From NCBI RefSeq assembly GCF_054482525.1, contig NZ_CM137006.1: a stretch of 64,000 nt of DNA. One strand, 5' to 3'. This document shows, piece after piece, positions 7,397-40,931 of this stretch (the stretch's first letter is position 1; every line of letters begins with the position of its first letter). Position numbers and translations under genes: made by a program. The notes beneath the pieces are model-generated. The model did not search any database. It was given only the letters and a program-made list of their open reading frames with translations, and was not told the origin of the DNA.

Positions 7397-7430
7397 CCCC
7401 GCCAGCTATAATCGCGGGGCTTCGTTTTTC
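7397..7430 (+). terminator. Rho-independent terminator after ykgJ
   Basis: GC stem ccccgc...gcgggg followed by cttcgttttt. Confidence 0.5.
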
Positions 7431-7579
7431 AGGGATAACAAAACCCGAAACTTCTTCCATCTGCCAGCAACAATGCCTCTTCCTCTATAGTGTTCTCCGG
7501 ATCTACAGCATCCTGAAGTAGCGCGATGTACTCACTAGCTATCTGTTTCAGAAAGTAAAAAGCAATGTTTTTAACCTAT

Positions 7580-7612
7580 AAAAATGGCGCTGTATTTGCG
7601 CCATTTTTATTA
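7580..7612. terminator. Hairpin terminator downstream of yagU, probably bidirectional
   Basis: aaaaatggcgc-tgtatt-tgcgccattttt: perfect stem flanked by A-run and T-run. Confidence 0.5.
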
Positions 7613-7621
7613 TTCAATGCA

Positions 7622-21032: not shown

Positions 21033-22230
21033 TGATCCTACCCGCGTAATGTGGACACGCTCCTAAGCGAGATTCTGGTTTTCAAACTGTTTCGGGCTGA
21101 GGCCGCCATAATCGCTGTGACGCCGCCAGCGATTGTAATCGCACTTAATCCGCCGTCCGCATGATTTCCCGGCTGATAAAGCGTTCTCCGTGGATACACT
21201 CGACTTTTAACGAGTGTAAGAAGCTTTCCGCACAGGCATTATCATAACAGCAACCTTTTGCGCTCATGCTGCCATGCAGATTATGTCGTTTCAGCAGAGC
21301 CTGATAATCCGCTGAGCAGTACTGCCCGCCACGGTCGGTGTGAATTCGCCGCCACAGCGCCATCTGCAGTGCATCACAGGCAAGTTCTGCCGTTATTTGC
21401 GAGGACACCAACTAGCCAATAATAGCACGCGACCACCAGTCTATAACCACGGCAAAGTATAACAAGCTTTCATCGATGCGAAGGTACGTGATGTCACCAG
21501 CCCACTTCTGGTCCGAGCCACTAGATCTGAAGTCCTGCTTCAGCAGATTCTCCGGCACTGGCTGGTCGTGAGCACAGTAGATTAACGGGCTGAACAGACG
21601 TGAGGTTTTTGCCCGCAGGCCCTGACGACGCGAACTGTTGCTATCGTTTTGATGTTGTATTCCGGCGGCTCGTCTGCAAGACGAGCCGCACCATAACGCT
21701 GTTTTGCCTCAACGAATACCTTACAGACAGCTTCATTGAAGACGCACCGGAACTGTTGCCGATGGCTCAGTTGGGGACGACGCAGACACCAGGTATACCA
21801 GCAGCTGTGCGCCACGCACAGCACCCGACACATAGCTTTGATACTGAACTCAACCTGATATTTTTCGATAAAGATATACTTCATTTCAGGCGCTACGCGA
21901 AGTATGTCGCGCCCTTTTGGAGAATAGCCAACTCATTATCCCGCTCAGCCAGTTGACGTTTGAGGCAGGCAATCTCCGCTGCTTGTGCGCTCTCTCTCAG
22001 AGGATATTGTCTGGTGCAGTTGTTTGTAGAGCTGGGAATCGTAAAGGCTGAGTTCACGGGCGGTAGTGGCCACACCGAGACGTTCGGCCAACTTAAGGGC
22101 TTCTTCACGAAATTCAGGCGTGTGTTGTTTGCGTGACTTTTGTTGATTGATGCTGATTTTGTCATGTGAGCTACCTCTGATTGAGAGTTTACTCGCTTAG
22201 TCCCGTGTCCACTATTGGTGGGTAGGATCA
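21033..22230 (-). mobile_element. Degraded IS3-family insertion sequence (frameshifted orfA, interrupted orfB)
   Basis: Terminal inverted repeats tgatcctaccc (21033) and gggtaggatca (22220); ORFs 21893..22231, 21582..21884 and 21145..21411 match InsE C-terminus ([23 protein letters not shown]) and InsF N- and C-terminal parts, but not as continuous frames. Confidence 0.75.
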
Positions 22231-22579: not shown

Positions 22580-24313
22580 ATGTACATAGCAAAAATTAAA
22601 TTTACAAATTTCAAATCATTCAAAGAGATGTCTTTTGAGTGCAATGATAAATTCAACATAATTGTTGGTGAAAATAATATTGGTAAAAGCACATTATTTG
22701 AGGGGGTAAGTTTATGGAAATATGCTTATGACAACCTTATTCAAGAAAAAAACAAAAACAAATTCTACAAAGCTTCAACTAACTACTACATTACCTATTC
22801 TACACTCGATCAAATAAGACTTGTTGACGATATTGATATTTTTAACGACCCAAAGAATAGCTCCGCATCAATATGCATTACAATTAAAGATGAACAAAAT
22901 GAATTTGATTTAGAGATTAGATTTGAAAAGCCAGGGATTAAAAATTCATACTTACGGATATTTAATAGCAATGGTTCTGATAATGACACACAGTTTTCAA
23001 ACTTTGAACGATTCTCAAACTATATAAAAGAAAAGGATTGCACTCTAAAAGATGCCATTTACATTTACCAAACAAGACCAATATCAACTATTTTTAGAGA
23101 TGAGCCATTTTACAATAATGCGCAGATAGAGAAAAAAATAAATATTGGAAAGTCACATGATGTCTTAAGGAATAAAATATTAAAAACCGAAAATACTCAA
23201 GCCACAAGGGTTGCACAAAAATTTGAAAATCTTGAGATTCGCCTACAAAAAGTCCTTGGTGAAAACTATATCTTAAAATTTAAGAATAGAAATCGAATCG
23301 ATGATGAGTATGTTAAAATAACTGCAACAAAGGAAAACGGGAAAGAATTGGAAATATCACTTATGGGTAGTGGTTTTTTGCAAGTCTTAGAGATATTTTC
23401 AACAATTGAGTATATGGAAAAGAATTCAACCGGTATTAACCTCATTCTTATCGATGAGCCTGATTCACATATCCACTCAAATTTACAAGCAAATTTAATT
23501 GACGAACTAAAGCAACAAACAGCATGTCAAATTTTTGTCATAACACATAATGACAGACTAACATCAAAAGCTAATGAAGGTGAGCTTTTTTATCTAAATC
23601 AGATAGTTAAGGATCTTGGTTTATTGTCTCACCTTGAAATATCTGATTATTCAAAAGTTAAAGATGGTCTAGCTAATGTACTAACAGCTATAAATGATGG
23701 AGATGAAACACCCATTGTTATAACTGAAGGAAAAACGGACCAGAAAATTTTAACAACTGCTTGGGAAAAGCTAAACCCAGGAACTCCTATGCCTTTTAAA
23801 ATAATTTCATCCGGCATTCAAATTGAAGAGGAAAAAAGAACTGGGTGCGCAGAGGCAGTTAGAAGATCTTTAGAATACATTTCAACATTAACTGATAGAA
23901 CAATTATCGGTTTATTTGATAATGATCGGGAGGGAAATGAGCAGTTCAAAGGATTAAATCGTTCTATTTTTGAACCTCATGACCTGCAAAATAACTCCCG
24001 AAAACATCAGATAAAAAATATCTATGGGCTTATTCTTCCCGTTCCTGTGCATAGAGAACGTTTTGTACAAAACAATTCTTTAACGCAGCGTTACTTCGTA
24101 ATTGAACAATATTTCCAAGATGAAATATTACTACAGCATAACATGAAAGGTGAGTCAATATTAGGTACTGAGGTATTTTTTGTTAATGACTCAAGAAAGA
24201 ATGAGTTTTCAGAGTCAACCAATGACCTTCCGGTAGAATGCTTTGGGGATTTTAGTATTTTATTCGATAAAATTTCCGATTTATTGGCTAACAATAGACC
24301 AGAAAACACTTGA
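22580..24313 (+). CDS. OLD-family ATP-dependent endonuclease (ABC-type ATPase + C-terminal TOPRIM)
   Basis: Walker A GENNIGKST, Walker B/H-loop LILIDEPDSHIH, TOPRIM glutamate IVITEGKTD and DxD motif FDNDREG; 577 aa; strongly AT-rich codon usage. Confidence 0.7.
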   Translation: MYIAKIKFTNFKSFKEMSFECNDKFNIIVGENNIGKSTLFEGVSLWKYAYDNLIQEKNKNKFYKASTNYYITYSTLDQIRLVDDIDIFNDPKNSSASICITIKDEQNEFDLEIRFEKPGIKNSYLRIFNSNGSDNDTQFSNFERFSNYIKEKDCTLKDAIYIYQTRPISTIFRDEPFYNNAQIEKKINIGKSHDVLRNKILKTENTQATRVAQKFENLEIRLQKVLGENYILKFKNRNRIDDEYVKITATKENGKELEISLMGSGFLQVLEIFSTIEYMEKNSTGINLILIDEPDSHIHSNLQANLIDELKQQTACQIFVITHNDRLTSKANEGELFYLNQIVKDLGLLSHLEISDYSKVKDGLANVLTAINDGDETPIVITEGKTDQKILTTAWEKLNPGTPMPFKIISSGIQIEEEKRTGCAEAVRRSLEYISTLTDRTIIGLFDNDREGNEQFKGLNRSIFEPHDLQNNSRKHQIKNIYGLILPVPVHRERFVQNNSLTQRYFVIEQYFQDEILLQHNMKGESILGTEVFFVNDSRKNEFSESTNDLPVECFGDFSILFDKISDLLANNRPENT

Positions 24314-28445: not shown

Positions 28446-29309
28446 TCAGAAGAAGAAGTTCCAGACTGCACGAGCGACCGATACCACGATGTCGCGTACA
28501 GACTGGATGACAGTCCGAACCGGGGACGGTATCAGGGGCATGGAACTTACTGTATCCAGTACCGAGCCGACCGTTTCACCAAAATCGTCGCGGGCTTTTT
28601 TATTAATGGCATCGGTACGAAGTGGATCACTAAGCTGTACCGCCACCGGACTACTGGCCTCCCGCGGCAGGCAATGAATCATCCGTTCAGCCATTACCCG
28701 CAGCCCCCATTGCAAACGTACCGACACCGCACAGACAGGGTTAACAGGTTGGAACAACTCATGCAGTAGACAGATTTTGCGGCTGATATTTTGTTTCTGC
28801 TCTGTAGACAGCTTTTCACCACCGCTGGTGGGTTCAACCTTGTCGGACTGACTGATAACAAACAACACCTTATGCCGGTATGCTTCACCAATCACCTGCA
28901 GGTAAAAATGTTCATCCACCGCTAGTGCTCGATCATCGGCCTTAATCAGCCACAGTACCAGATCGAGTTGCGTCAGTTGCTGGCGATACATCGCAGCATA
29001 TTCCGCATCACGACTTTTGCTTTCACCGACACCGGGCAGATCTACTATGGTCATAAAGCGTTCGCCAACTTGCAGGCGAAAGCGCAAAGGTTCGCGTGTG
29101 CAGGCGCTCACATCGCTGACCGGAGAGATTTTTCCGGCAAACAGCGCATTACAGAGTGATGATTTACCCGACCCGGTTTTCCCCATAATGCCGATCACCG
29201 GCTCATAGTGAGTAAGCTGGTTTACCTGTTGCAGAATACGCTCTGATGCCCACTGCGGCAGGCCAGAAAGCGATTGCTGCAGCGACTGCAAACCTTCAGA
29301 TTTTTTCAT
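28446..29309 (-). CDS. GTPase, YfjP/YkfA/YeeP family
   Basis: P-loop GIMGKTGSGKSSLCNALF, DLPG switch motif; start trimmed to MKKSEGL. Confidence 0.75.
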   Translation of the reverse strand: MKKSEGLQSLQQSLSGLPQWASERILQQVNQLTHYEPVIGIMGKTGSGKSSLCNALFAGKISPVSDVSACTREPLRFRLQVGERFMTIVDLPGVGESKSRDAEYAAMYRQQLTQLDLVLWLIKADDRALAVDEHFYLQVIGEAYRHKVLFVISQSDKVEPTSGGEKLSTEQKQNISRKICLLHELFQPVNPVCAVSVRLQWGLRVMAERMIHCLPREASSPVAVQLSDPLRTDAINKKARDDFGETVGSVLDTVSSMPLIPSPVRTVIQSVRDIVVSVARAVWNFFF

Positions 29310-29431: not shown

Positions 29432-30490
29432 TCAGGAATGCGCCCTGACTTTTTCTGTTTTTACCATTAATCCGGCATACTCACGTTCAATAAGTGAGGA
29501 CATTAAATCTGACTCAGACTCACCATATATTTCTGACAGTCTGGCGAGTTTCTTTTTAGTTCTGGCTGAAATTTTTATTGTCATATCGTTCTCTTTAGAC
29601 TGTCTGCGAAACAGTTTCTGATCCCAGGCTTTTTGCAGTTCACCCATCAGGACTGCTTTATGTCGCAGGGGAGAGCGCGGAAGCGTCAGTAAATCAGCGA
29701 AGTTCTGACTCATTTTTTTTCGATTTCCCTTTAAATAACTCAGTTGCTCATGAGTCCAGCCCTCCCACTGATCAAAAGTAGCACAAATAAAAAGCCAGCG
29801 TTGATAGTTATTCAGCGGATTTATCGGAGGGCAAACCGCCTTCTTTTTCATCAGGTTCCATACCCACAAGCACTGTTTTTCATCATTGATATCCAGCCAT
29901 GAAAAAGCTTCAGGAAAGTCACCACAGGCCTGTCCCCATGCAGTATTTATTGCTTTTATTAGCTTGCGCCGGGTTTCAGTTTCTGCATCACAGAGTTCTC
30001 TTAATACACACTCAAAAACATCATCAACTCCAGTTGCCATTTCCCTCATGAATGGTGAGTAAATCCCATTGGCGTAATAAAAATCTGGCGGCATCATCTT
30101 TTTTGGAGTGGACATTTTACCCAGGGTTGATTTTTCAGAAGCTGATTCAAGGTTTGTGTTTAATATGTTTTCTAACAGCTCATCACCTTCATAACCCTTA
30201 CCTTCATTTGTTTGATTAAAATTAAATTCTGGCATCATTCCTGGAAGTGTTGCTGCTTTATTTTTTTCAATACTTAGCTCAATTGACTCCGTCCCCAGAG
30301 CCCTAGCAGATATCTGACTGGGTTCGTCTATATGATCCTGGCGAACAACTGCTGACCTCCACTCACTCAGAAAACGAGCAATATAGAAAAAATAGAAACA
30401 TGCGGCACGGGGATTTTTATCAAGCCACCTCAGCTTCTTTTTTAATAACTTGTATTTTTCTTGAGCGCCCAGCGCCTTCTCTTTGCTCAT
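29432..30490 (-). CDS. Hypothetical protein with C-terminal ribbon-helix-helix-like segment
   Basis: 352 aa; C-terminus MTIKISARTKKKLARLSEIYGESESDLMSSLIEREY looks like a CopG/RHH fold; no other recognisable motif. Confidence 0.45.
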   Translation of the reverse strand: MSKEKALGAQEKYKLLKKKLRWLDKNPRAACFYFFYIARFLSEWRSAVVRQDHIDEPSQISARALGTESIELSIEKNKAATLPGMMPEFNFNQTNEGKGYEGDELLENILNTNLESASEKSTLGKMSTPKKMMPPDFYYANGIYSPFMREMATGVDDVFECVLRELCDAETETRRKLIKAINTAWGQACGDFPEAFSWLDINDEKQCLWVWNLMKKKAVCPPINPLNNYQRWLFICATFDQWEGWTHEQLSYLKGNRKKMSQNFADLLTLPRSPLRHKAVLMGELQKAWDQKLFRRQSKENDMTIKISARTKKKLARLSEIYGESESDLMSSLIEREYAGLMVKTEKVRAHS

Positions 30491-31466
30491 TATTCACCCA
30501 GATTCAGTTTCCATTAATGATGTCATTATGATGTAAAACCATAGGCAATCAACAGGAAAAAATGTAATTTCAAGAGTGAGTAATGATGAATCAATGTATT
30601 TTTTTCGTAGTAGATTCGTAGTAAGATATCGCGTGGCAAAACACTAATTATCAACAGGTTGTAAGTGCTCCCTTCCTCAGACTACCATTACCAATATGGG
30701 ACTGCAGTATGAAGACCCTGGCATGTGAAGTTAAACAACAACGACATGACATTCGTGATGTTGCCATGCGTTGGGGAGTGCAAATCAAACGACCTGCGTC
30801 ATTCCTTCATCAGGATTTCTGCTACCCTGATAGGGTCAGCACCTCCGCACACTTCGTGACAATCGCAACATCAGATGACACCCGATGCGATTGCTGATAT
30901 CGCATTCGTGTTGTTTTCGATAATTAAGGTTAATTAATAATATAGTGCATAGTGCCTGCCCTTTCTCATCCATGCCCCATTTTACCCTTGGACCGTGTTT
31001 CAACATATTTACATTCAGTACCTGTTTCTCCACGCGCTATCTTCCCTGCAAAAAAAAACAGTACCAGGCAATCCTTTGAGCAAAAACCAAAGGATTACTG
31101 AAATACAAAAACACTACCCATCTTTCCAGAATATTATCCCTGATGATTGCCTTCTCAACATGATTAATCACCACCTTAATCAGATGCTGGAACGTTACTC
31201 AAAGATTCTGGCTTTTCGCATGGACTTCAGTTACCGGAAAGGAATCAATAGGTATATCCGTAATTCCGCCCTTGAAATATAGGATGTTCTTCGCGAGTTA
31301 ATGCCATCCATTTTAACCAAAGATGCGTCTGTGGCTGTTTTTGGGCGTTAGAATGGACAAGAGAAGGTGCAGTGCACTCACATGCCATTTTTTATATCAA
31401 TGGACAAAATCATAAGAAATCATTCCCTTTTGTACTGGAGGCAAAAAGCATGTGGTTAAAAATCTC

Positions 31467-31490: not shown

Positions 31491-31783
31491 TAAAATGGTG
31501 TCCGGCGGATAGTTATCACAGGGATACTATAAACAGAATAGTGGAATAAAAAAATGAGGTTGATGTGCAGAGTTTGAGACGGATAGCCAGCTATCAGACA
31601 AAAGAAGACCAGAAATATGGATTACCAATATGGGGATACAACGAAATTAATTTGCCCGCCAGACAGGGCAGACCGAGGAAGTTTAGTTAGTTTTTTACAG
31701 CAGCACCGGTTGCTATGCCGGAGTGGGTAGTAGTAATTCATCACTGGACTCCGGTACTTATTTAGCTACCGGAGAATCAAATC

Positions 31784-31996
31784 ATGACCAGTAAACCTTC
31801 CTTGTCCGAAGACCAGTTCGTTGATATGGCTTTTATCACCCGCCTGCTGGGGGTCAGCGATAAATGGATTTACCGACTCATTAAGGATGGCATATTTCCA
31901 AAACCCATCAAACTGGGACGAAGCTCCCGCTGGTTACAAAGCGAAGTCGAAGCCTGGCTGCAGGCCCGTATTGATGCATCCCGCCCTCAACACTAA
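31784..31996 (+). CDS. alpA: AlpA-family phage regulatory protein / excisionase-like
   Basis: 70 aa; VDMAFITRLLGVSDKWIYRLIKDGIFPKPIKLGRSSRW is the classic AlpA HTH. Confidence 0.8.
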   Translation: MTSKPSLSEDQFVDMAFITRLLGVSDKWIYRLIKDGIFPKPIKLGRSSRWLQSEVEAWLQARIDASRPQH

Positions 31997-32097
31997 ACCC
32001 TTTCCCGTTCGTTAACAAACAAGTGCGCCATCTCATATCCGCTCCTTGCGGAGGCTTACGTCTGCATGTCAGTTACTCATTAAAGGAATATCAGAAA

Positions 32098-32630
32098 TGA
32101 ACAATTCACCCTTACTCAACCATTACCAGGCCTGGCTGGATGATTTTACCCGCGTCAGTCTGTTCCACGGTTTATGCCAGAAGCACATCTCGCAGTGGCA
32201 CAGGCTGGCGATAACCGCCTGCCCGATGCCAGGCAGTAGCGTAACAGAAGTCGTCATTCCACAGTGTCTGCTGCCGGTTACCCGCACCAGTCGACTGGGA
32301 TCATGTACTGTCGCCCCCGGTCTGACTAAACACATCGATTATGCCCTTCTGCCCGGTGTGCTGCTCAGCGAATGTTATCGACTGGGGAAAAGTCGGCTGG
32401 CAGACCAGTTACAGATGTTATTCCGGCTTAATGTACAGTCCGGTATGCGCCAGGCGCTGATCCTGCTGTGCTGGTGTGAGCTGGCAACAGGTAAGGATAT
32501 GGAGGAATGGTATGCGCTGCATCTGCCACTGCCTGACACGCTGACGCAATGGTTGGCAGTAAAACAGCGGGCATACCGGGGACTGAAGACGCTGACTGAC
32601 GGTTACATTCGTGCCACCCAGCCGATGTGA
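32098..32630 (+). CDS. Hypothetical protein
   Basis: ORF with start trimmed to MNNSPLLNHY; no recognisable domain; operonic with alpA. Confidence 0.4.
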
Positions 32631-32640
32631 GGGACGGATA

Positions 32641-33024
32641 ATGCTGATACCAAAATGCTATATTGCACAGCGTAAAACCGGTGAGATTTTCGCTGTCAGC
32701 CAACTGAATTCAGGCGATGAAGAGTGGTTCTGCCATCACTGCCAGTGCCCGTTGATTTTCCATTCCCCCACCATAACGTCACCGCCCTGGTTCGAACACG
32801 ACATACTTCAGGGACAACCAGAAGCACTGTTGCAATGCCCCTATCTGGCCCCCGTCAATGCAAAGCCTTCAGCGGTGGCTAAGCTACAGCGCCTTCTGGC
32901 ACAACTCCCACCGGTCATCACGACCACACAATGGCAATGTACCATGTGCGGCCTGTCATATTGCGGCGAGAAGTGCTGCCCTCAATGTAGAAAAGGGATA
33001 TATAGTCGGGAGATACGAATTTAG
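32641..33024 (+). CDS. Cys-rich putative zinc-ribbon protein
   Basis: CHHCQC and CTMCG...CCPQC cysteine pairs; 127 aa. Confidence 0.4.
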   Translation: MLIPKCYIAQRKTGEIFAVSQLNSGDEEWFCHHCQCPLIFHSPTITSPPWFEHDILQGQPEALLQCPYLAPVNAKPSAVAKLQRLLAQLPPVITTTQWQCTMCGLSYCGEKCCPQCRKGIYSREIRI

Positions 33025-33351
33025 TGATACGTACCAGGCAATCATGGGATTGATTGGTACACCAGAAAGTTATTATATGGGGGCATATAACTTCGGAGTA
33101 AAAATCAATCACTTTCTATCATCCGGCCCCTGGTGCTTGTGGATTCGTAATTCATAAACCATGACGGGTTGGTAATATTAATTAACCAACTGATATATAA
33201 ACAATATTATCTCATTGTCACGCTCATATACGGTTACTCATACACGACAGCCTTAATTGCTGGCATCACCCTTTAAATCCTTAATCCCTTTAACAGCCCA
33301 TTGCGGGTAAGGCTTTGCCCTGCCCGTAATTTATTACCCAAGGAAAATTAT

Positions 33352-33963
33352 ATGTTTGACAATATCTGTCTCGATAGACGGCATGCACCATTCAACACCA
33401 CTTACCTACAGCGTATTCTACGCGTTATAGATAACGCGACTGCAGAGCATGCACGGACGATGGCAGTTCGGGTAGACCTGCGTCTTCCTGACAATATGCT
33501 CATTAACCGACAGGGCCTGATATCTCGTTTCATTGAATCCCTTGATGCAAAGATTGCAGCGCGCTACAGAAGTAAGTTGAAGCAGGGTAAACGAACATAT
33601 CCATGCCACCTTCGCGATGCCTGGGTTCGGGAGGTGGGTGAGATTAATCAGAAATCGCATTACCACATGGTGTTGTTCGTGAATAACGATACATTCAATG
33701 GGCTGGGGAGTTACAAAGAAGATGGGACGGGCCTGGCGTCCTTGATACGAGAGGCCTGGCTGAGTGCTTTACAGCTTAGTCACCGCCCAGAGCACTGGAC
33801 GCTAGCCCACTATCCCGATAATCCACTTTATTTTCTGGATATTAATTCCGCTGGCTACAAAGAGTCTTATGACCAACTGACGTTTCGGTTAAGTTATTTT
33901 GCGAAGGAACGCACCAAAGATTACAACAGGGAGGAACGTTCATTCGGATGTAGCCAGGGCTGA
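33352..33963 (+). CDS. YagK/YfjJ-family (inovirus Gp2-like) protein
   Basis: Start trimmed to MFDNICLD; resembles CP4-57 YfjJ / CP4-6 YagK. Confidence 0.55.
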   Translation: MFDNICLDRRHAPFNTTYLQRILRVIDNATAEHARTMAVRVDLRLPDNMLINRQGLISRFIESLDAKIAARYRSKLKQGKRTYPCHLRDAWVREVGEINQKSHYHMVLFVNNDTFNGLGSYKEDGTGLASLIREAWLSALQLSHRPEHWTLAHYPDNPLYFLDINSAGYKESYDQLTFRLSYFAKERTKDYNREERSFGCSQG

Positions 33964-34753: not shown

Positions 34754-36853
34754 ATGAACCGAGAGCAAGCCCAACAACTGCTGCAGACTGCTTTGGCTAA
34801 CCCTGCTGCTGAATTTCGTGATGGTCAGTGGGAAGCCATTGATGCATTGGTTAATCGTCGTCAGAAACTACTGGTTGTACAGCGTACCGGCTGGGGTAAG
34901 AGCTCGGTTTATTTTATTAGTACTAAAATCTTCCGTGACCGCGAGATGGGGCCTACGATTATTGTATCGCCACTGCTTGCATTAATGCGTAACCAGATTG
35001 ATTCAGCGCAGCGTTTGGGAATAGTTGCCGAAACAATGAATTCGGCTAATAGGGAGGATTGGCAGGCTGTAACTCAACGAATTCTCAATAACCAAATAGA
35101 CTGTTTGCTCATTTCCCCAGAGCGGCTAGCAAATGATACCTTTATTGAGACGGTCCTTCAGCCCATTGCCGATCGAATCGCCCTAATGGTAATTGACGAA
35201 GCACACTGTATTTCAGATTGGGGTCATGATTTTCGTCCTGATTATCGCCGTATCGTAAATATCCTTCGTCAATTGCCCGCCAACACCCCAGTACTAGGTA
35301 CGACTGCAACTGCCAATAACCGAGTTGTTGACGATATCCAAGCCCAGCTTGGGGATATACAAATCCACCGAGGTCCTCTTACTCGCGAAAGCCTCGCTCT
35401 GCATACAATGTCTTTACCCGATCAGGCATCTCGTTTAGCTTGGCTCGCCCAAGTTATTCCGATGCTACATGGAACAGGCATTATTTACGCATTAACAGTT
35501 CGTGATGCCGAGCAGGTGGCAGAATGGTTGAGCATGCACGGTATAGTTGCCATGGCATACCACGGTAGCATCGAGGCTGAAGGTTTTGAGAACAGCAATG
35601 CTTACCGTCAGTACTTAGAAGAATTGTTACTTAACAACCAGCTTAAGGTTTTAGTAGCAACGACCGCGTTGGGTATGGGTTATGATAAACCTGATTTAAG
35701 TTTTGTAATCCATTACCAAGCTCCGAGTTCAATTGTTGCATACTACCAGCAGGTGGGTCGGGCTGGGCGCGGTATTGCTCATGCAACAGGTGTACTGATG
35801 TCGGGGATAGAAGATAACGACATCCATGATTTTTTCCGTGATTCTGCATTTCCATCGGAGGATCAAGTTAACGATATTCTTCGAGTGTTGGAAAATAATG
35901 ATGGTCTATCACTCCGCAACATCGAGGAAAAAACTAACCTACGCCACGGCCAGATTGAGAAAGTACTTAAGTTACTGAGTGTAGAAAATCCAGCCCCCAT
36001 CATTAAAAATGAAAATCGTTGGGTTAGGACCACAGTTCGCTATCAAATGGATCATGCCCGAATTGCTCATTTGACAGGACAACGTATTCAGGAATGGGAA
36101 GAGGTTCAAGCGTACCTTACCGACACTGGATGCAAAATGGCATTTCTACGTCGTTCTCTGGACGATCTCGACCCAACTCCATGTGGTAAATGCTCGTCCT
36201 GTATTGGTCAACCAATTATAAATCAAATCATTGACCCTGCTTTGGTACATCGTGCAGGGACTTTCCTAAAACATGCAGAAATGCCGATTACTCCAAAAGC
36301 TCAGGTAGCAGCTAATGCTTTTTTGCAATATGGCTTCAGCGGCAATTTGCCACAGCAGATTAGAGCACAAGAAGGTCGAGTGTTGTCTCGCTGGGGAGAT
36401 GCTGGTTGGGGACGGTTAGTAGCCGATAATAAACGTGCAGATCACTTTGATGATGAGCTAGTGGTTGCTATGGCCGAGATGATTCAGCAGCGTTGGCAAC
36501 CGAATCCAGCGCCACAATGGGTATGCTGTGTACCTTCACGCAATCATGTACAATTAGTCCCTGATTTCGCTCGCCGCTTGGCGGCATGTTTGAGGTTGCC
36601 TTTTTTCAATGCCATCAGCAAGGTTAGAGATAACCAACCTCAAAAGGGGCAACAAAACCGTTTCCATCAATGCCGCAATCTGGACGGTGCTTTTGAGATA
36701 AATCAACCTCTACCTAACACACCGGTTCTACTTGTAGATGACATTGTAGATTCAGGCTGGACGTTAACTGTCATCGCAGCACTCCTACAACGCGCAGGTA
36801 GTGGTAAAGTATACCCTGTTGCACTTGCTTCATCTTCGGTAAAAGACTCATGA
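34754..36853 (+). CDS. RecQ-family helicase fused to a C-terminal phosphoribosyltransferase-like domain (PsyrT-like)
   Basis: Helicase motifs GWGKS (I), DEAH (II), TATA (III), QQVGRAGR (VI); C-terminal type-I PRTase motif VLLVDDIVDSGWTLT. Confidence 0.8.
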   Translation: MNREQAQQLLQTALANPAAEFRDGQWEAIDALVNRRQKLLVVQRTGWGKSSVYFISTKIFRDREMGPTIIVSPLLALMRNQIDSAQRLGIVAETMNSANREDWQAVTQRILNNQIDCLLISPERLANDTFIETVLQPIADRIALMVIDEAHCISDWGHDFRPDYRRIVNILRQLPANTPVLGTTATANNRVVDDIQAQLGDIQIHRGPLTRESLALHTMSLPDQASRLAWLAQVIPMLHGTGIIYALTVRDAEQVAEWLSMHGIVAMAYHGSIEAEGFENSNAYRQYLEELLLNNQLKVLVATTALGMGYDKPDLSFVIHYQAPSSIVAYYQQVGRAGRGIAHATGVLMSGIEDNDIHDFFRDSAFPSEDQVNDILRVLENNDGLSLRNIEEKTNLRHGQIEKVLKLLSVENPAPIIKNENRWVRTTVRYQMDHARIAHLTGQRIQEWEEVQAYLTDTGCKMAFLRRSLDDLDPTPCGKCSSCIGQPIINQIIDPALVHRAGTFLKHAEMPITPKAQVAANAFLQYGFSGNLPQQIRAQEGRVLSRWGDAGWGRLVADNKRADHFDDELVVAMAEMIQQRWQPNPAPQWVCCVPSRNHVQLVPDFARRLAACLRLPFFNAISKVRDNQPQKGQQNRFHQCRNLDGAFEINQPLPNTPVLLVDDIVDSGWTLTVIAALLQRAGSGKVYPVALASSSVKDS

Positions 36854-38175
36854 ATGTATCTAACTTATTGTCAAAAACAGCCCAGGCGACCTTACTTCTG
36901 ACTAGTTATTTTTCTAAAGCAACTAGCGAAAACGCCAAACCACTTTCCAACGCCGAATGGGGACGTTTTGCGCTATGGTTGAAAGAAAAAGCAGTTACGC
37001 CAGCTGACTTGTTGGACTCTGATCCTCAAACCTTACTGAATGGCTGGTACGACTCCCGTATCAGTACGGATCGGATCATTGAGTTGATGAATCGAGGACA
37101 TAGCCTCGCTTTGGCTATGGAGAAATGGCAACGGGCAGGCTTGTGGGTAGTGACACGTTCTGATCCAGAATATCCATGGAGATTAAAACATCGGCTTAAA
37201 ACAGACTCTCCCCCTGTTTTATTTGGCTGTGGCAATAAAGCCTTATTAAATAGAGGGGGATTGGCTGTCATTGGTTCTCGAAATGCCAATGCATCAGACC
37301 TTACTTTTACTGATCACATCGGCGTTAAAGCTGCGGACGAAAATATAGCTGTTGTATCTGGTGCTGCACGTGGAGTAGACGAAACAGCCATGTTAGGTGC
37401 AATGAGGCAAGGTGGAGTTGTAATCGGGATTTTGGCAGATAGCCTGTTAAAAGCTGCGACTAGTGCCAAATGGCGCAAGGGGCTTATGAATGACCATGTT
37501 GTGCTAATATCCCCTTTTTACCCTGAGGCTGGTTTCTATGCGGGAAATGCCATGGCTCGCAATAAATATATCTATTGCTTGTCGGATAGTGCATTGGTTA
37601 TTCATTCTGGTCGAAAAGGTGGAACAATTAGTGGGGCAGAGGAAAATCTTAAGAAAGGATGGGTGCCACTATGGGTCAATCCAACAACCGATCTAGATTC
37701 AGCTAATGCTGACTTAGTGAGCAAAGGGGGACATTGGTTGCCAAGTGATAGTAATGGCCTATCCATCGAGAATTTGCTTAAAAATAATGACAGATCAAAA
37801 ATGCAGTTAAAAGCAGAGCCCCAAGATCTTTTTTCAGAATTGTCGCATCCAGAATTAATTATTGGATCTGCAGAGAAATCGTCAACTCAAGCTCTCGAAA
37901 AAGATTGGACTGCTACTATTAATGAAGAAACTCCCAACCTAATAACTACGGAAAAAAAATTAGAGGAAAAAGAGTTAGATGTAAATCCTATAGACTTTTA
38001 TCTGCTATTCAGGACAGAATTACAGCGATTGGCCGAACATCCAATTACAGTAGATAGGTTGACAGAAGTCACTGGGTTGAATAAATCGCAAGTGCTTGAT
38101 TGGTTGAAACGTGCTGAACAAGATGGTTTGGTAAAAAAACTAAACCGTCCTACAAGATATCAATTAAATGAGTAG
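36850..38175 (+). CDS. DprA/Smf-like Rossmann-fold protein with C-terminal winged helix (PsyrA/ShosA-like)
   Basis: DprA core LAVIGSRNA...VVSGAARGVDETAMLGA...GGTI; ATGA start/stop overlap with the upstream helicase gene. Confidence 0.75.
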   Translation: MNVSNLLSKTAQATLLLTSYFSKATSENAKPLSNAEWGRFALWLKEKAVTPADLLDSDPQTLLNGWYDSRISTDRIIELMNRGHSLALAMEKWQRAGLWVVTRSDPEYPWRLKHRLKTDSPPVLFGCGNKALLNRGGLAVIGSRNANASDLTFTDHIGVKAADENIAVVSGAARGVDETAMLGAMRQGGVVIGILADSLLKAATSAKWRKGLMNDHVVLISPFYPEAGFYAGNAMARNKYIYCLSDSALVIHSGRKGGTISGAEENLKKGWVPLWVNPTTDLDSANADLVSKGGHWLPSDSNGLSIENLLKNNDRSKMQLKAEPQDLFSELSHPELIIGSAEKSSTQALEKDWTATINEETPNLITTEKKLEEKELDVNPIDFYLLFRTELQRLAEHPITVDRLTEVTGLNKSQVLDWLKRAEQDGLVKKLNRPTRYQLNE

Positions 38176-38356: not shown

Positions 38357-39346
38357 TTATGTCTTTCTTTCAAGTGCAACTCCTAGATCCGCTGCCATTT
38401 TTTGGATTAGCCTCCAATCTAGCGGCCATTCTTTTTCTAAAGTAGATCTCCGTCTTTTGATTAACCAGTAAACGAAAATAACAACGCTTTGTTCAAAGAA
38501 ACTACTCCCTTCTTTGCCATCCTGAATTAGTAGTTCGAGCTCAGGAGTCTCTTCTATAAATTGATGTAATCTTTCTATCGTATCGGGTTTGATCACTTCT
38601 TTAAATGTATCTAGAATTAATAAAGTCGATTTTTGATTGTTTGGTTTATTCTTTGTTAAAGCTATGTAGATATTATCTAAAGTTCGCTGAATTCCTGCGT
38701 AACCATCAGATGCTGCGTTAATTGCTTTCGATACTGAACAGAAAAAATCATCCGTAGTTTCTATTAACGCCATGCTTTTTGCTACAGTTCTATGTATATC
38801 TGGTTCAACTATAGTTTTTGCTTTATATATGGCATCATGAGTTAACTCGGCATAGGCATGTTGTAATAAAGATCTAACCTGTATCTCACATGGAATGCCT
38901 TGTTCAATGATAACTCCATTATAATCAAAGGATTCTTTTGCAGTTACTATAAAATGTACGGATTGATACGTGAAAATTAATGGTGTATTTAATCTTTCTT
39001 CTTCGTAGTGTCTTGATGTCTTATAATGCCATTTATTACTACTTTTTATTATTTCACATATTTCATCTATATCTGAAGTAAGTAAAACGACAAACCTGAT
39101 GCCAACTTTATCTTCAATCTCTTGGTAGGGGTTTTTGTATGATTTTTCTTTTCGATGAAAAGCTTTATCGATTAGAGATGTCTTTTCTTTTATTCTCGGT
39201 GTCGCAGGTTGCTTGAGAAAGCTATTGAGGTCCCGCTCTTTATTTTCTGAGAGTTCTTTGCAAATATTTGAGACGACAAAATCTCCCCATGCTTTATACA
39301 TGGGTAGTTCTTTTTCCCAAAGTTGCGAAAACTCTAATTCATTCAT
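38357..39346 (-). CDS. RelA/SpoT-fold nucleotidyltransferase (toxSAS-like)
   Basis: Synthetase-domain signature PRIKEKTSLIDKAFHRKE, GIRFVV, YQSVHFIV and CEIQVRSLLQHAYAELTHDAIYK (EIQIRT..QHxWAE..H..YK); AT-rich. Confidence 0.7.
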   Translation of the reverse strand: MNELEFSQLWEKELPMYKAWGDFVVSNICKELSENKERDLNSFLKQPATPRIKEKTSLIDKAFHRKEKSYKNPYQEIEDKVGIRFVVLLTSDIDEICEIIKSSNKWHYKTSRHYEEERLNTPLIFTYQSVHFIVTAKESFDYNGVIIEQGIPCEIQVRSLLQHAYAELTHDAIYKAKTIVEPDIHRTVAKSMALIETTDDFFCSVSKAINAASDGYAGIQRTLDNIYIALTKNKPNNQKSTLLILDTFKEVIKPDTIERLHQFIEETPELELLIQDGKEGSSFFEQSVVIFVYWLIKRRRSTLEKEWPLDWRLIQKMAADLGVALERKT

Positions 39347-39354
39347 TAATTAGC

Positions 39355-40446
39355 TCATTCCTGAAGGGTTATCTTGTCCTTGATGAGGATTGTTGTCCAC
39401 TCAGCAGGTTTACCATCTTTATCGAGTTCACCTATAGTAGATTCAATTACAATATGGCTTTTAAAAACTTCCGCAGGGGCTGTGATTTTTATATTTTTAC
39501 TAAAGTTAAGCTTTCTTGTTTTTAATTTGCTTTCAATATGCTCGTTGTCTCTTGTGAAAGAGGTTTGTGGTATACCAGATTCATGAGCATACTCAAGATA
39601 AAGATCCTTAATACTATCATCAAAAAATCTTTCAGCATAATCTTTAGCTGAAATTACATCCGATTTTTCATGTTTAAGATATGTAACTAATGCATTTTTA
39701 AGCACATTTTTCTTTTCCTCGCTGACATCCAATTCATTAAGAAATTCACTCGTTTTTTCATAGAAATTCTTTGTTGTGCGGGCACTTGTTTCTGGGTAAC
39801 CGCAACCTAAAAAATTTTGATAAAAATATTGTGCTGCAGCTTTACCATCCGACTTACTGATTTGATAGTCAGAAATCATCACATCCCAAGATTTATTAAG
39901 ATCAGTATTATCAAGAGAATTGGTTGATTGGAAAAAACCGGCAGTTTTATAAAGTTTTGTGGATGGTGTAAGTAATATTTCTTCAACGAATTTTAATGAT
40001 ATTTGGCCCGTTTTATCGTCGATTACTTTTTCATATGCACTATAAATATCAGCCTTGATAATTCCAATGAATTTTCTTTTATTTACACCATAGTCGCCAG
40101 AAAAGATTACTACAATTCCGCCTGGAATTGCTCGTCTTGTCTGCGCATCTGCCAGTTTATTAGCTATTGTGTAAGTCTCATCAATATAATCCTCTCCCTC
40201 TTTATCAATTAAAGTTGTAGCAATATAAGGAACATAATCTTTTCCATGCTCCTTTATTTGCATTTTTACGGCTTTAGAACCATCACCTAAAGCGTCGATT
40301 ACTCGTGATTTAAAACCTTGCAAGGCATCAGCATCAAATTTTATAAATGAAGAACCTCTTGTTGGTTCTATTTTGTTTCCTTCTTCGTCGCGCTGATGAA
40401 TTTGGTGGATAATTATTTTGTTAATATTCATTTTGCTGATATTCAT
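39355..40446 (-). CDS. NA37-family nucleoid-associated protein homolog (YejK/NdpA-like)
   Basis: Similarity along the whole length to remembered YejK: N-terminus INKIIIHQIHQRDE vs INQIALHQLIKRDE, and central and C-terminal blocks; AT-rich. Confidence 0.65.
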   Translation of the reverse strand: MNISKMNINKIIIHQIHQRDEEGNKIEPTRGSSFIKFDADALQGFKSRVIDALGDGSKAVKMQIKEHGKDYVPYIATTLIDKEGEDYIDETYTIANKLADAQTRRAIPGGIVVIFSGDYGVNKRKFIGIIKADIYSAYEKVIDDKTGQISLKFVEEILLTPSTKLYKTAGFFQSTNSLDNTDLNKSWDVMISDYQISKSDGKAAAQYFYQNFLGCGYPETSARTTKNFYEKTSEFLNELDVSEEKKNVLKNALVTYLKHEKSDVISAKDYAERFFDDSIKDLYLEYAHESGIPQTSFTRDNEHIESKLKTRKLNFSKNIKITAPAEVFKSHIVIESTIGELDKDGKPAEWTTILIKDKITLQE

Positions 40447-40463
40447 TTCTGTGTAGTTCCATC

Positions 40464-40931
40464 TTATTGATTATCTGATTTTATATTTTTGCTTTCAATA
40501 TATTCTTTGTGAATATTATTCCATTCTTGACTGTCTTTTTCCCAAATAGATTTATATTCATCAAAAAGACTATCAATATCTGACTGGGTTACATCTTCTT
40601 TGGATTTTAAGTAATTAACTTTGTTTCTAAGTTGATACATGGCTAGCAAAGTAGCTTTTTGCCTAAACCATAATTTTTGATAATCAAATCTTGCAGTCCA
40701 CCCACTAACTAGAGTAAGACAGGCACTCACAATAAGAGCAGAATTTTTCTGTATTTTTTCATATCCAGATAAATCGAAGGCTAATATCAGTGTAGTAATA
40801 GTGCTCAAAAATATAGTCATGAAAAAAAATATTTTTAATTTTTTTTTATTCCATTTCGCCTTGCACTTTATTATGTTGATACTTTTATGGATTTCATCCA
40901 GTAAAAACTGTTGAGAAGATGTTATAGACAA
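40464..40931 (-). CDS. Small 2-TM membrane protein, SLATT-like
   Basis: Two hydrophobic helices (FFFMTIFLSTITTLILAF, ALIVSACLTLVSGW) followed by a charged helical tail; first gene of the three-gene operon. Confidence 0.5.
   Translation of the reverse strand: MSITSSQQFLLDEIHKSINIIKCKAKWNKKKLKIFFFMTIFLSTITTLILAFDLSGYEKIQKNSALIVSACLTLVSGWTARFDYQKLWFRQKATLLAMYQLRNKVNYLKSKEDVTQSDIDSLFDEYKSIWEKDSQEWNNIHKEYIESKNIKSDNQ

Follow-up and report, generated by a model that had tools for sequence, protein, structure and literature searches.

The window analysed here, a stretch of 64,000 nucleotides (NCBI RefSeq assembly GCF_054482525.1, contig NZ_CM137006.1), shows in reverse complement a genomic island located at the tRNA-Thr beside proA, that is, at the CP4-6 site. 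Islands of the CP4-57/CP4-6 type are common enterobacterial carriers of defence and toxin-antitoxin cargo, and their regulation and mobility are poorly understood. Their gene set comprises a P4-like integrase, AlpA, a Gp2-like Rep, a GTPase, DUF932, antirestriction, RadC and CbtA/CbeA. Starting from the integrase, the present island exhibits SLATT, nucleoid-associated and RelA/SpoT-like proteins; DprA and RecQ; a Gp2-family Rep; a zinc-ribbon protein; a hypothetical protein; and AlpA. After a 1.3-kb gap come the gene under study, here termed X, the GTPase, DUF932, a DeoR/WYL regulator, further genes and then RadC, DUF987 and YeeU/CbtA.

Several of the other genes deserve mention. The RecQ-like helicase (34754-36853, + strand) and the DprA-like protein (36850-38175, +), which RefSeq labels merely as RecQ and DprA, match very strongly PsyrT (1045 bits) and PsyrA (E 7e-170), a toxin-antitoxin/defence system. 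The three-gene cluster adjoining the integrase (38357-40931, -) encodes SLATT (2TM effector match, E 4e-6), a 'nucleoid-associated protein' with no PADLOC match, and a RelA/SpoT-like 'GTP pyrophosphokinase' matching PDC-S33 (2e-9). By its content the cluster resembles a signalling defence system, for which it is a candidate. A stand-alone 'ATP-dependent nuclease' of 577 residues (22580-24313, +), with moderate matches to the NsnB, GajA, AriA and PtuA models, sits between transposase pseudogenes (an IS3 pseudogene lies at ~21063-22165) and has no obvious partner gene. Most related islands also keep two genes located after alpA and ahead of the intact Gp2-like rep, which encode a 194-residue hypothetical protein (32046-32630, +) and the zinc-ribbon protein (32611-33024, +); neither matches PHROG, and both add to the uncharacterised backbone genes of this island class.

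The 352-residue hypothetical ORF singled out by an earlier, sequence-only reading of this DNA is a real gene that belongs to an unnamed, unannotated and sparse gammaproteobacterial family. Its product is identical to a 'hypothetical protein' of E. coli SCU-102, and a conserved GGTGA-type ribosome-binding site precedes its ATG. The DNA carrying X is present in one of 5426 complete E. coli genomes (SCU-102 only), and the exact protein is found on 318 contigs of public assemblies, annotated 'hypothetical' every time. Its homologues form 19 clusters at 90% identity, and at 50% identity the family comes down to 63 representatives in a set of 1.8 billion proteins. Relatives occupy ten loci among 100,044 species genomes, in Citrobacter, Brenneria, Yersinia, Serratia, Hafnia, Kluyvera, Photorhabdus, Enterobacter and two Vibrio; one further homologue belongs to Marinobacterium. 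A scan of viral contigs found no relative, and a phage collection gave no match. Three plasmid matches were obtained, one in a Klebsiella record and two in IncF records, both of which resemble island fragments, the first (L026) with Gp2/AlpA genes, the second (L027) largely unannotated. No match of X to a family of Pfam, NCBIfam, PADLOC or PHROG was significant. No study of the gene was found in the literature on YfjP, YfjQ, YfjJ and DUF932.

Table 1. Features of the X gene, of its protein product (residue numbers of X) and of the surrounding control region. Positions are those of the window, except for the last line.
Feature	Position	Strand	Basis and remarks
YkfA/YfjP-like GTPase	28446..29309	-	122 nt downstream of X; the coding strand in between has no terminator-like site
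X (working name)	29432-30490	-	352 codons, ATG start; product WP_000031617.1
RHH domain, residues 301-345	29456..29590	-	strand TIKIS, helix KKKLARLSEIY, G-E-S turn, helix SDLMSSLIEREYAG
Seven-helix bundle, residues 143-300	29591..30064	-	second, complete module FSWLDINDEKQCLWVWNLMKKK
Variable linker, predicted disordered, residues 53-142	30065..30334	-	pLDDT, conservation
Truncated first Trp-rich three-helix module, residues 6-45	30356..30475	-	LRWLDKNPRAACFYFFY; hhalign and motif positions
Predicted sigma-70-like promoter, TTGATT-16-CATAAT	30525..30552	-	consensus scan; ~35-60 nt upstream of X ATG
Tandem CTACG-N5-ACTAC repeat	30607..30621	-	candidate operator or activator site
16-bp palindrome TAATTAA-CC-TTAATTA	30921..30936	.	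divergent control region
Gp2-like rep remnant	31103..31282	+	first 59 codons, 78% identity, BLASTP E 1e-34
alpA-family excisionase/regulator	31784..31996	+	PHROG excisionase matches, RefSeq; no intact gene of the divergent operon precedes it
'Inovirus Gp2 family' (YagK/YfjJ-like) putative rolling-circle Rep, intact	33352..33963	+	
RHH-less paralogue WP_001547760.1	4968-5894 of locus L011 (E. coli CX07)		slot of X, divergent from alpA and ahead of the GTPase

The members of the X family are built of a duplicated, Trp-rich three-helix module of ~75 residues, a linker predicted to be disordered, a seven-helix bundle and, usually, a ribbon-helix-helix (RHH) domain. Family alignments reveal invariant Trp-rich motifs: WL-x4-RA at the N-terminus, a central F-x-WLD-x2-DE-x-QC-x-W-x-W, A-x-FD-x-W, and KAW-x-QK-x-R, after which comes the strand-helix-helix segment. 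When the profile of the family's N-terminal region is compared with the C-terminal domain, it aligns to helices one to three (hhalign probability 97.1%, E 4.7e-11), which indicates that the family was built by tandem duplication of the module; in the X of the window the first copy is shortened to residues ~6-45. The seven-helix bundle, which harbors the complete copy, also contains the helices ATFDQW and KAWDQKLFRR, the latter basic. In the full-length AF2 model, pLDDT falls below 50 at residues 49-142 and the remainder is confident; the linker is also the least conserved region of the family (alignment A1). The model of residues 143-352, which was built from 42 homologues, reaches a mean pLDDT of 91.5 and displays the seven-helix bundle, an extended segment and two helices. 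As modelled, the helical domain is a non-enzymatic all-alpha bundle. A Foldseek search of the PDB with the full-length, low-confidence X model returned nothing at E<1.

The C-terminus of X is a genuine RHH by sequence, fold and motif, as the sequence-only reading had suspected. The structure prediction that it called for, made for the monomer, does end in a strand and two helices with the RHH topology, a unit of ~45 residues, and the turn opening helix 2 (G323-E324-S325) conforms to the G-x-S/T/N pattern, which is retained in many, not all, members of the family. Significance of the profile matches is reached at the family level, whereas the X of the window alone gives just E 0.029. Among PDB sequences, the family profile (A3) matches MatP, CopG-family and CopG chains. 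Members of the family match RepB-RCR_reg (PF10723, 2-5 members) and RHH_3 (PF12651) in Pfam, and RepA2/CopB (PRK13702, 2.8e-6), BrnA and BfmA in NCBIfam, all these RHH-subfamily matches being under the family cut-offs, and those to RepB-RCR_reg and RepA2/CopB far under the curated ones (27 bits vs 87). The residues of the RHH strand differ between lineages, which fits the expectation for lineage-specific operators.

The genomic neighbourhood was compared by running the family HMM and the window neighbour proteins against six-frame ORFs of every retrieved locus, complemented by gene calls. All 18 distinct loci that include an upstream flank share one arrangement: a cluster with alpA and/or a Gp2-like rep, a spacer of 0.4-1.3 kb, and then X as the first gene transcribed in the divergent direction. 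The GTPase directly follows X at 13 of these 18 loci, all from Enterobacterales. X stands without it at the Vibrio loci, at L008 and at L014, the latter organised as int-X|rep-RadC-alpA with DarTG cargo; the reverse case, a GTPase with no X, is seen in K-12 CP4-57 and strain AF22. The rep remnant of the window has its intact equivalent in Enterobacter (L005), where this rep lies divergently right beside X; no relation links it to the intact Gp2-family gene (taken there as 33301-33963) further along the divergent operon.

The window GTPase is 78-80% identical in nucleotide sequence to K-12 ykfA and yfjP, and in CP4-57 the rnlAB genes lie directly upstream of yfjP. The sequence-only reading was thus correct in placing X in the rnlAB slot, and equally so in seeing no resemblance to RnlA: X gave no match to RnlA or RnlB in Pfam, NCBIfam or PADLOC, and none of the CP4-57 six-frame ORFs, rnlAB included, matches the X family HMM. 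Unlike the cargo gene rnlAB, X is a conserved backbone gene beside rep/alpA. YfjH (318 amino acids, divergent from alpA) was considered as the K-12 counterpart of X and rejected (hhalign probability 0.1%). The gene, its RHH fold, domain architecture, internal duplication and conserved synteny are established here. The RHH itself is a known domain type; the duplicated Trp-rich module, the architecture of X and its fixed position in this island class are undescribed so far.

X and the spacer upstream form a trough of 39-43% GC between neighbours at 52-59%, and several candidate cis-elements are found in it. The TTGATT block of the predicted X promoter is conserved in four of five relatives. Further upstream, 10 enterobacterial loci including the window, which represent about 3-4 independent lineages, have a tandem CTAC[G/A]-N5-6-CTAC in the same strand orientation, -121 to -142 from the X start codon. 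The CTAC-N5-7-CTAC motif is not over-represented in the window, and therefore its positional conservation alone counts. The palindrome occurs once in the window, with 0 copies expected by chance, and is found identical in Enterobacter L005 and at the remote locus L008/L009. It lies there some 430-465 bp upstream of X, the distance to the start of rep being 100-200 bp. To note, an exact 14-nt direct repeat, ATTACCAATATGGG, at 30687-30700 and 31621-31634 (934 bp apart), flanks the palindrome and the rep remnant and may be the sign of a duplication or insertion by which a spacer of about 650 bp grew to 1.3 kb. Besides this repeat, no repeat family of obvious function was found in the 1.3-kb spacer, the sequence of which is confined to one E. 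coli genome. Rfam models, run on both the region and the entire window, detect no RNA near X, the weak CyaR and sroE matches being noise; an IS009 element (7416-7616, -; 186 bits) lies outside the island and is unrelated to X.

Taken at its divergent control region and with its genuine RHH, X is most likely a regulator of the island rather than a toxin-antitoxin fusion. From these features we infer DNA binding by X, its target sites and its regulatory outcome. The reading that we favor, to which we give about an even chance, is that X works at the divergent control region as a dimeric, sequence-specific DNA-binding protein of the RHH type, which would regulate its own gene as well as the excision/replication operon, much as CopG or CopB do. 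X would thus be a backbone protein of islands of the P4-integrase/AlpA/Gp2-Rep type (CP4-6/CP4-57-like). Two C-terminal RHH domains would pair, and the resulting two-stranded β-sheet would enter the DNA major groove. The target sites would lie in the AT-rich control region dividing, in island orientation, the leftward alpA/rep operon from the rightward X operon (X-GTPase-DUF932-WYL and further genes). By analogy with CopG and CopB/RepA2, which act on plasmid rep, X would both autoregulate and set the expression of the island excision and replication genes. The duplicated Trp-rich modules and the disordered linker may provide extra DNA contacts, an oligomerisation interface or a signal-sensing surface.

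Several lines of evidence argue for this regulator reading: the RHH matches of family members are replication or transfer regulators (RepB-RCR_reg, RepA2/CopB, BfmA); the divergent alpA/rep synteny is invariant across the loci, and in the window the rep remnant still abuts the spacer; the spacer possesses conserved cis-elements (palindrome, CTAC repeats and promoter) and the GC trough; and the family profile finds MatP, a site-specific RHH protein. CopG and CopB (RepA2), of the 'RepB-RCR_reg' type, share with X the RHH domain, a gene beside the replication initiator and a common control region. They differ from it in size and topology, being 45-85 amino acids long and made of the RHH alone, whereas proteins of the X family are large and helical, 300-380 amino acids long, with the RHH as their C-terminal part.

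The main caveat to the regulator reading comes from an RHH-less paralogue. WP_001547760.1, a 308-residue 'hypothetical protein', has its gene between alpA and the GTPase in 32 of 5426 E. coli genomes, CX07 among them, and its 90% cluster gathers 549 member sequences, including some from Kluyvera, Citrobacter, Enterobacter and Yersinia. It is homologous to X (hhalign probability 99.7%, E 1.3e-26), occupies the same slot and possesses the same duplicated module, although just ~14% of aligned positions are identical; unlike X, it stops right after the KAWxQ helix, without the RHH. The existence of such members implies that the helical modules have a function of their own.

An alternative that we consider unlikely, though deserving of consideration ahead of the others, is that X is an origin or oriT accessory factor and not a transcription regulator. 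X would bind and bend the spacer DNA and help the Gp2-like HUH Rep to nick the excised island and to process it, be it for replication or for mobilisation, as do TraM, TraY, MbeC or BfmA at oriT, or the origin-binding auxiliaries of rolling-circle replicons. The matches of X to RHH proteins of this kind are under the cut-offs and not specific to transfer, since CopB, BrnA and MatP score equally or better; furthermore, the RHH of the relaxosome proteins TraM and BfmA/BtgA is N-terminal. No nick site and no oriT, relaxase or conjugation gene was found in the island, and the rep copy beside X in the window is a dead remnant while X is intact.

It is rather improbable that X acts as a partner of the YfjP/YkfA-like GTPase, as its adaptor, regulator or sensor, for example within a defence or anti-defence module in which the bundle would serve as a death-fold-like assembly domain. 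The comparison of loci (18 of 18 for the divergent cluster, 13 of 18 for the GTPase) and the GTPase-only islands indicate that the invariant partner of X is the rep/alpA control region, not the GTPase, a point that the sequence-only reading had overlooked.

MatP, a chromosome organiser and site-specific DNA-binding RHH dimer, is the best sequence match to the X family among solved structures (PDB 4D8J, 3VEA and 7NYW), and leads to a further reading that we hold to be quite doubtful: X would be a true homologue of the four-helix-bundle-plus-RHH core of MatP and, like it, an organiser, which would bind repeated palindromic sites and bridge or condense the island DNA, or tether the excised circle for segregation. 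With the family profile, the three distinct MatP sequences of the PDB rank 1, 2 and 4 of 177,635 (E 8.2e-5, 0.0065 and 0.17), and the alignment spans the bundle and the RHH (MatP residues 10-131). Both proteins display a helical bundle, then a basic helix, then the RHH, with collinear helix order and a W-x-W-x-Y-L helix at an equivalent position; MatP-matS is also among 22 Foldseek hits. Profile-profile comparison (hhalign) with a 4-sequence MatP alignment gives a probability of 88.7% (E 2.5e-6, 103 columns). The helical part alone yields P 6e-4 and a probability of 28%, centred on QCxWxWxYLKK versus GWKWKYLVKK, with p 0.002-0.014 in a shuffle test. A more diverse, non-redundant alignment of 26 MatP sequences, collected from a Photorhabdus MatP query (the E. 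coli query gave just ~99%-identical sequences), gives a probability of 87% for the RHH alone (37 columns), and with this better profile the match of the bundle is no stronger. By sequence comparison, the RHH of X appears nearest to that of MatP, and of the MatP match this RHH part alone is robust; the homology of the helical bundles is suggestive but unproven. X lies outside the MatP family: none of 51 X family members matches the Pfam MatP families (PF06303, PF17414) at E<=0.1, and there is no NCBIfam MatP match. X ends 7-10 residues past RHH helix 2, without the C-terminal coiled coil of MatP, and instead of multiple matS-like sites the window contains its candidate palindrome as a single copy.

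Lastly, a toxin-antitoxin fusion or antitoxin-like module, with a toxic N-terminal part neutralised or autoregulated via the RHH, is very improbable: some RHH matches are antitoxins (ParD/PrpA, MazE4, TacA, BrnA), and X stands in a slot filled by rnlAB in CP4-57, within an island rich in toxin-antitoxin and defence cargo, but X exhibits no toxin, nuclease, defence or other enzymatic family or fold, its neighbours are the GTPase and alpA/rep, its RHH is C-terminal whereas that of antitoxins is typically N-terminal, its synteny is conserved as for a backbone gene and not variable as for cargo, and intact RHH-less homologues are maintained in 32 E. coli genomes, where an unneutralised toxin would not persist. 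The sequence-only reading had proposed an unrecognised regulator or such a fusion; the regulator is still the likeliest reading, and the fusion finds no support in the all-alpha bundle or in the RHH-less paralogues.

To our knowledge, no transfer mechanism has been described for islands of the CP4-57/CP4-6 type. A related class of Pseudomonas islands was recently demonstrated to move by jumbo-phage transduction (PMC12595487). By analogy with Stl of SaPI, it is conceivable, if improbable, that this island class has its master switch in X: a DNA binder derived from MatP, which would keep the divergent alpA/rep operon off, and whose fast-evolving helical modules and linker would sense a signal from a helper phage or conjugative element, thereby releasing the island for excision, rolling-circle replication and transfer.

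The duplicated Trp-rich helical module is newly defined and could merit a Pfam entry, and the link to MatP, if confirmed, would tie a chromosome-organising protein to a relative borne by mobile elements. Its fixed place at the divergent control region, together with a bona fide DNA-binding domain, makes X a concrete candidate for the regulator of the element; a role as master switch, if true, would offer a handle on the mobilisation of these widespread islands and of their defence cargo.
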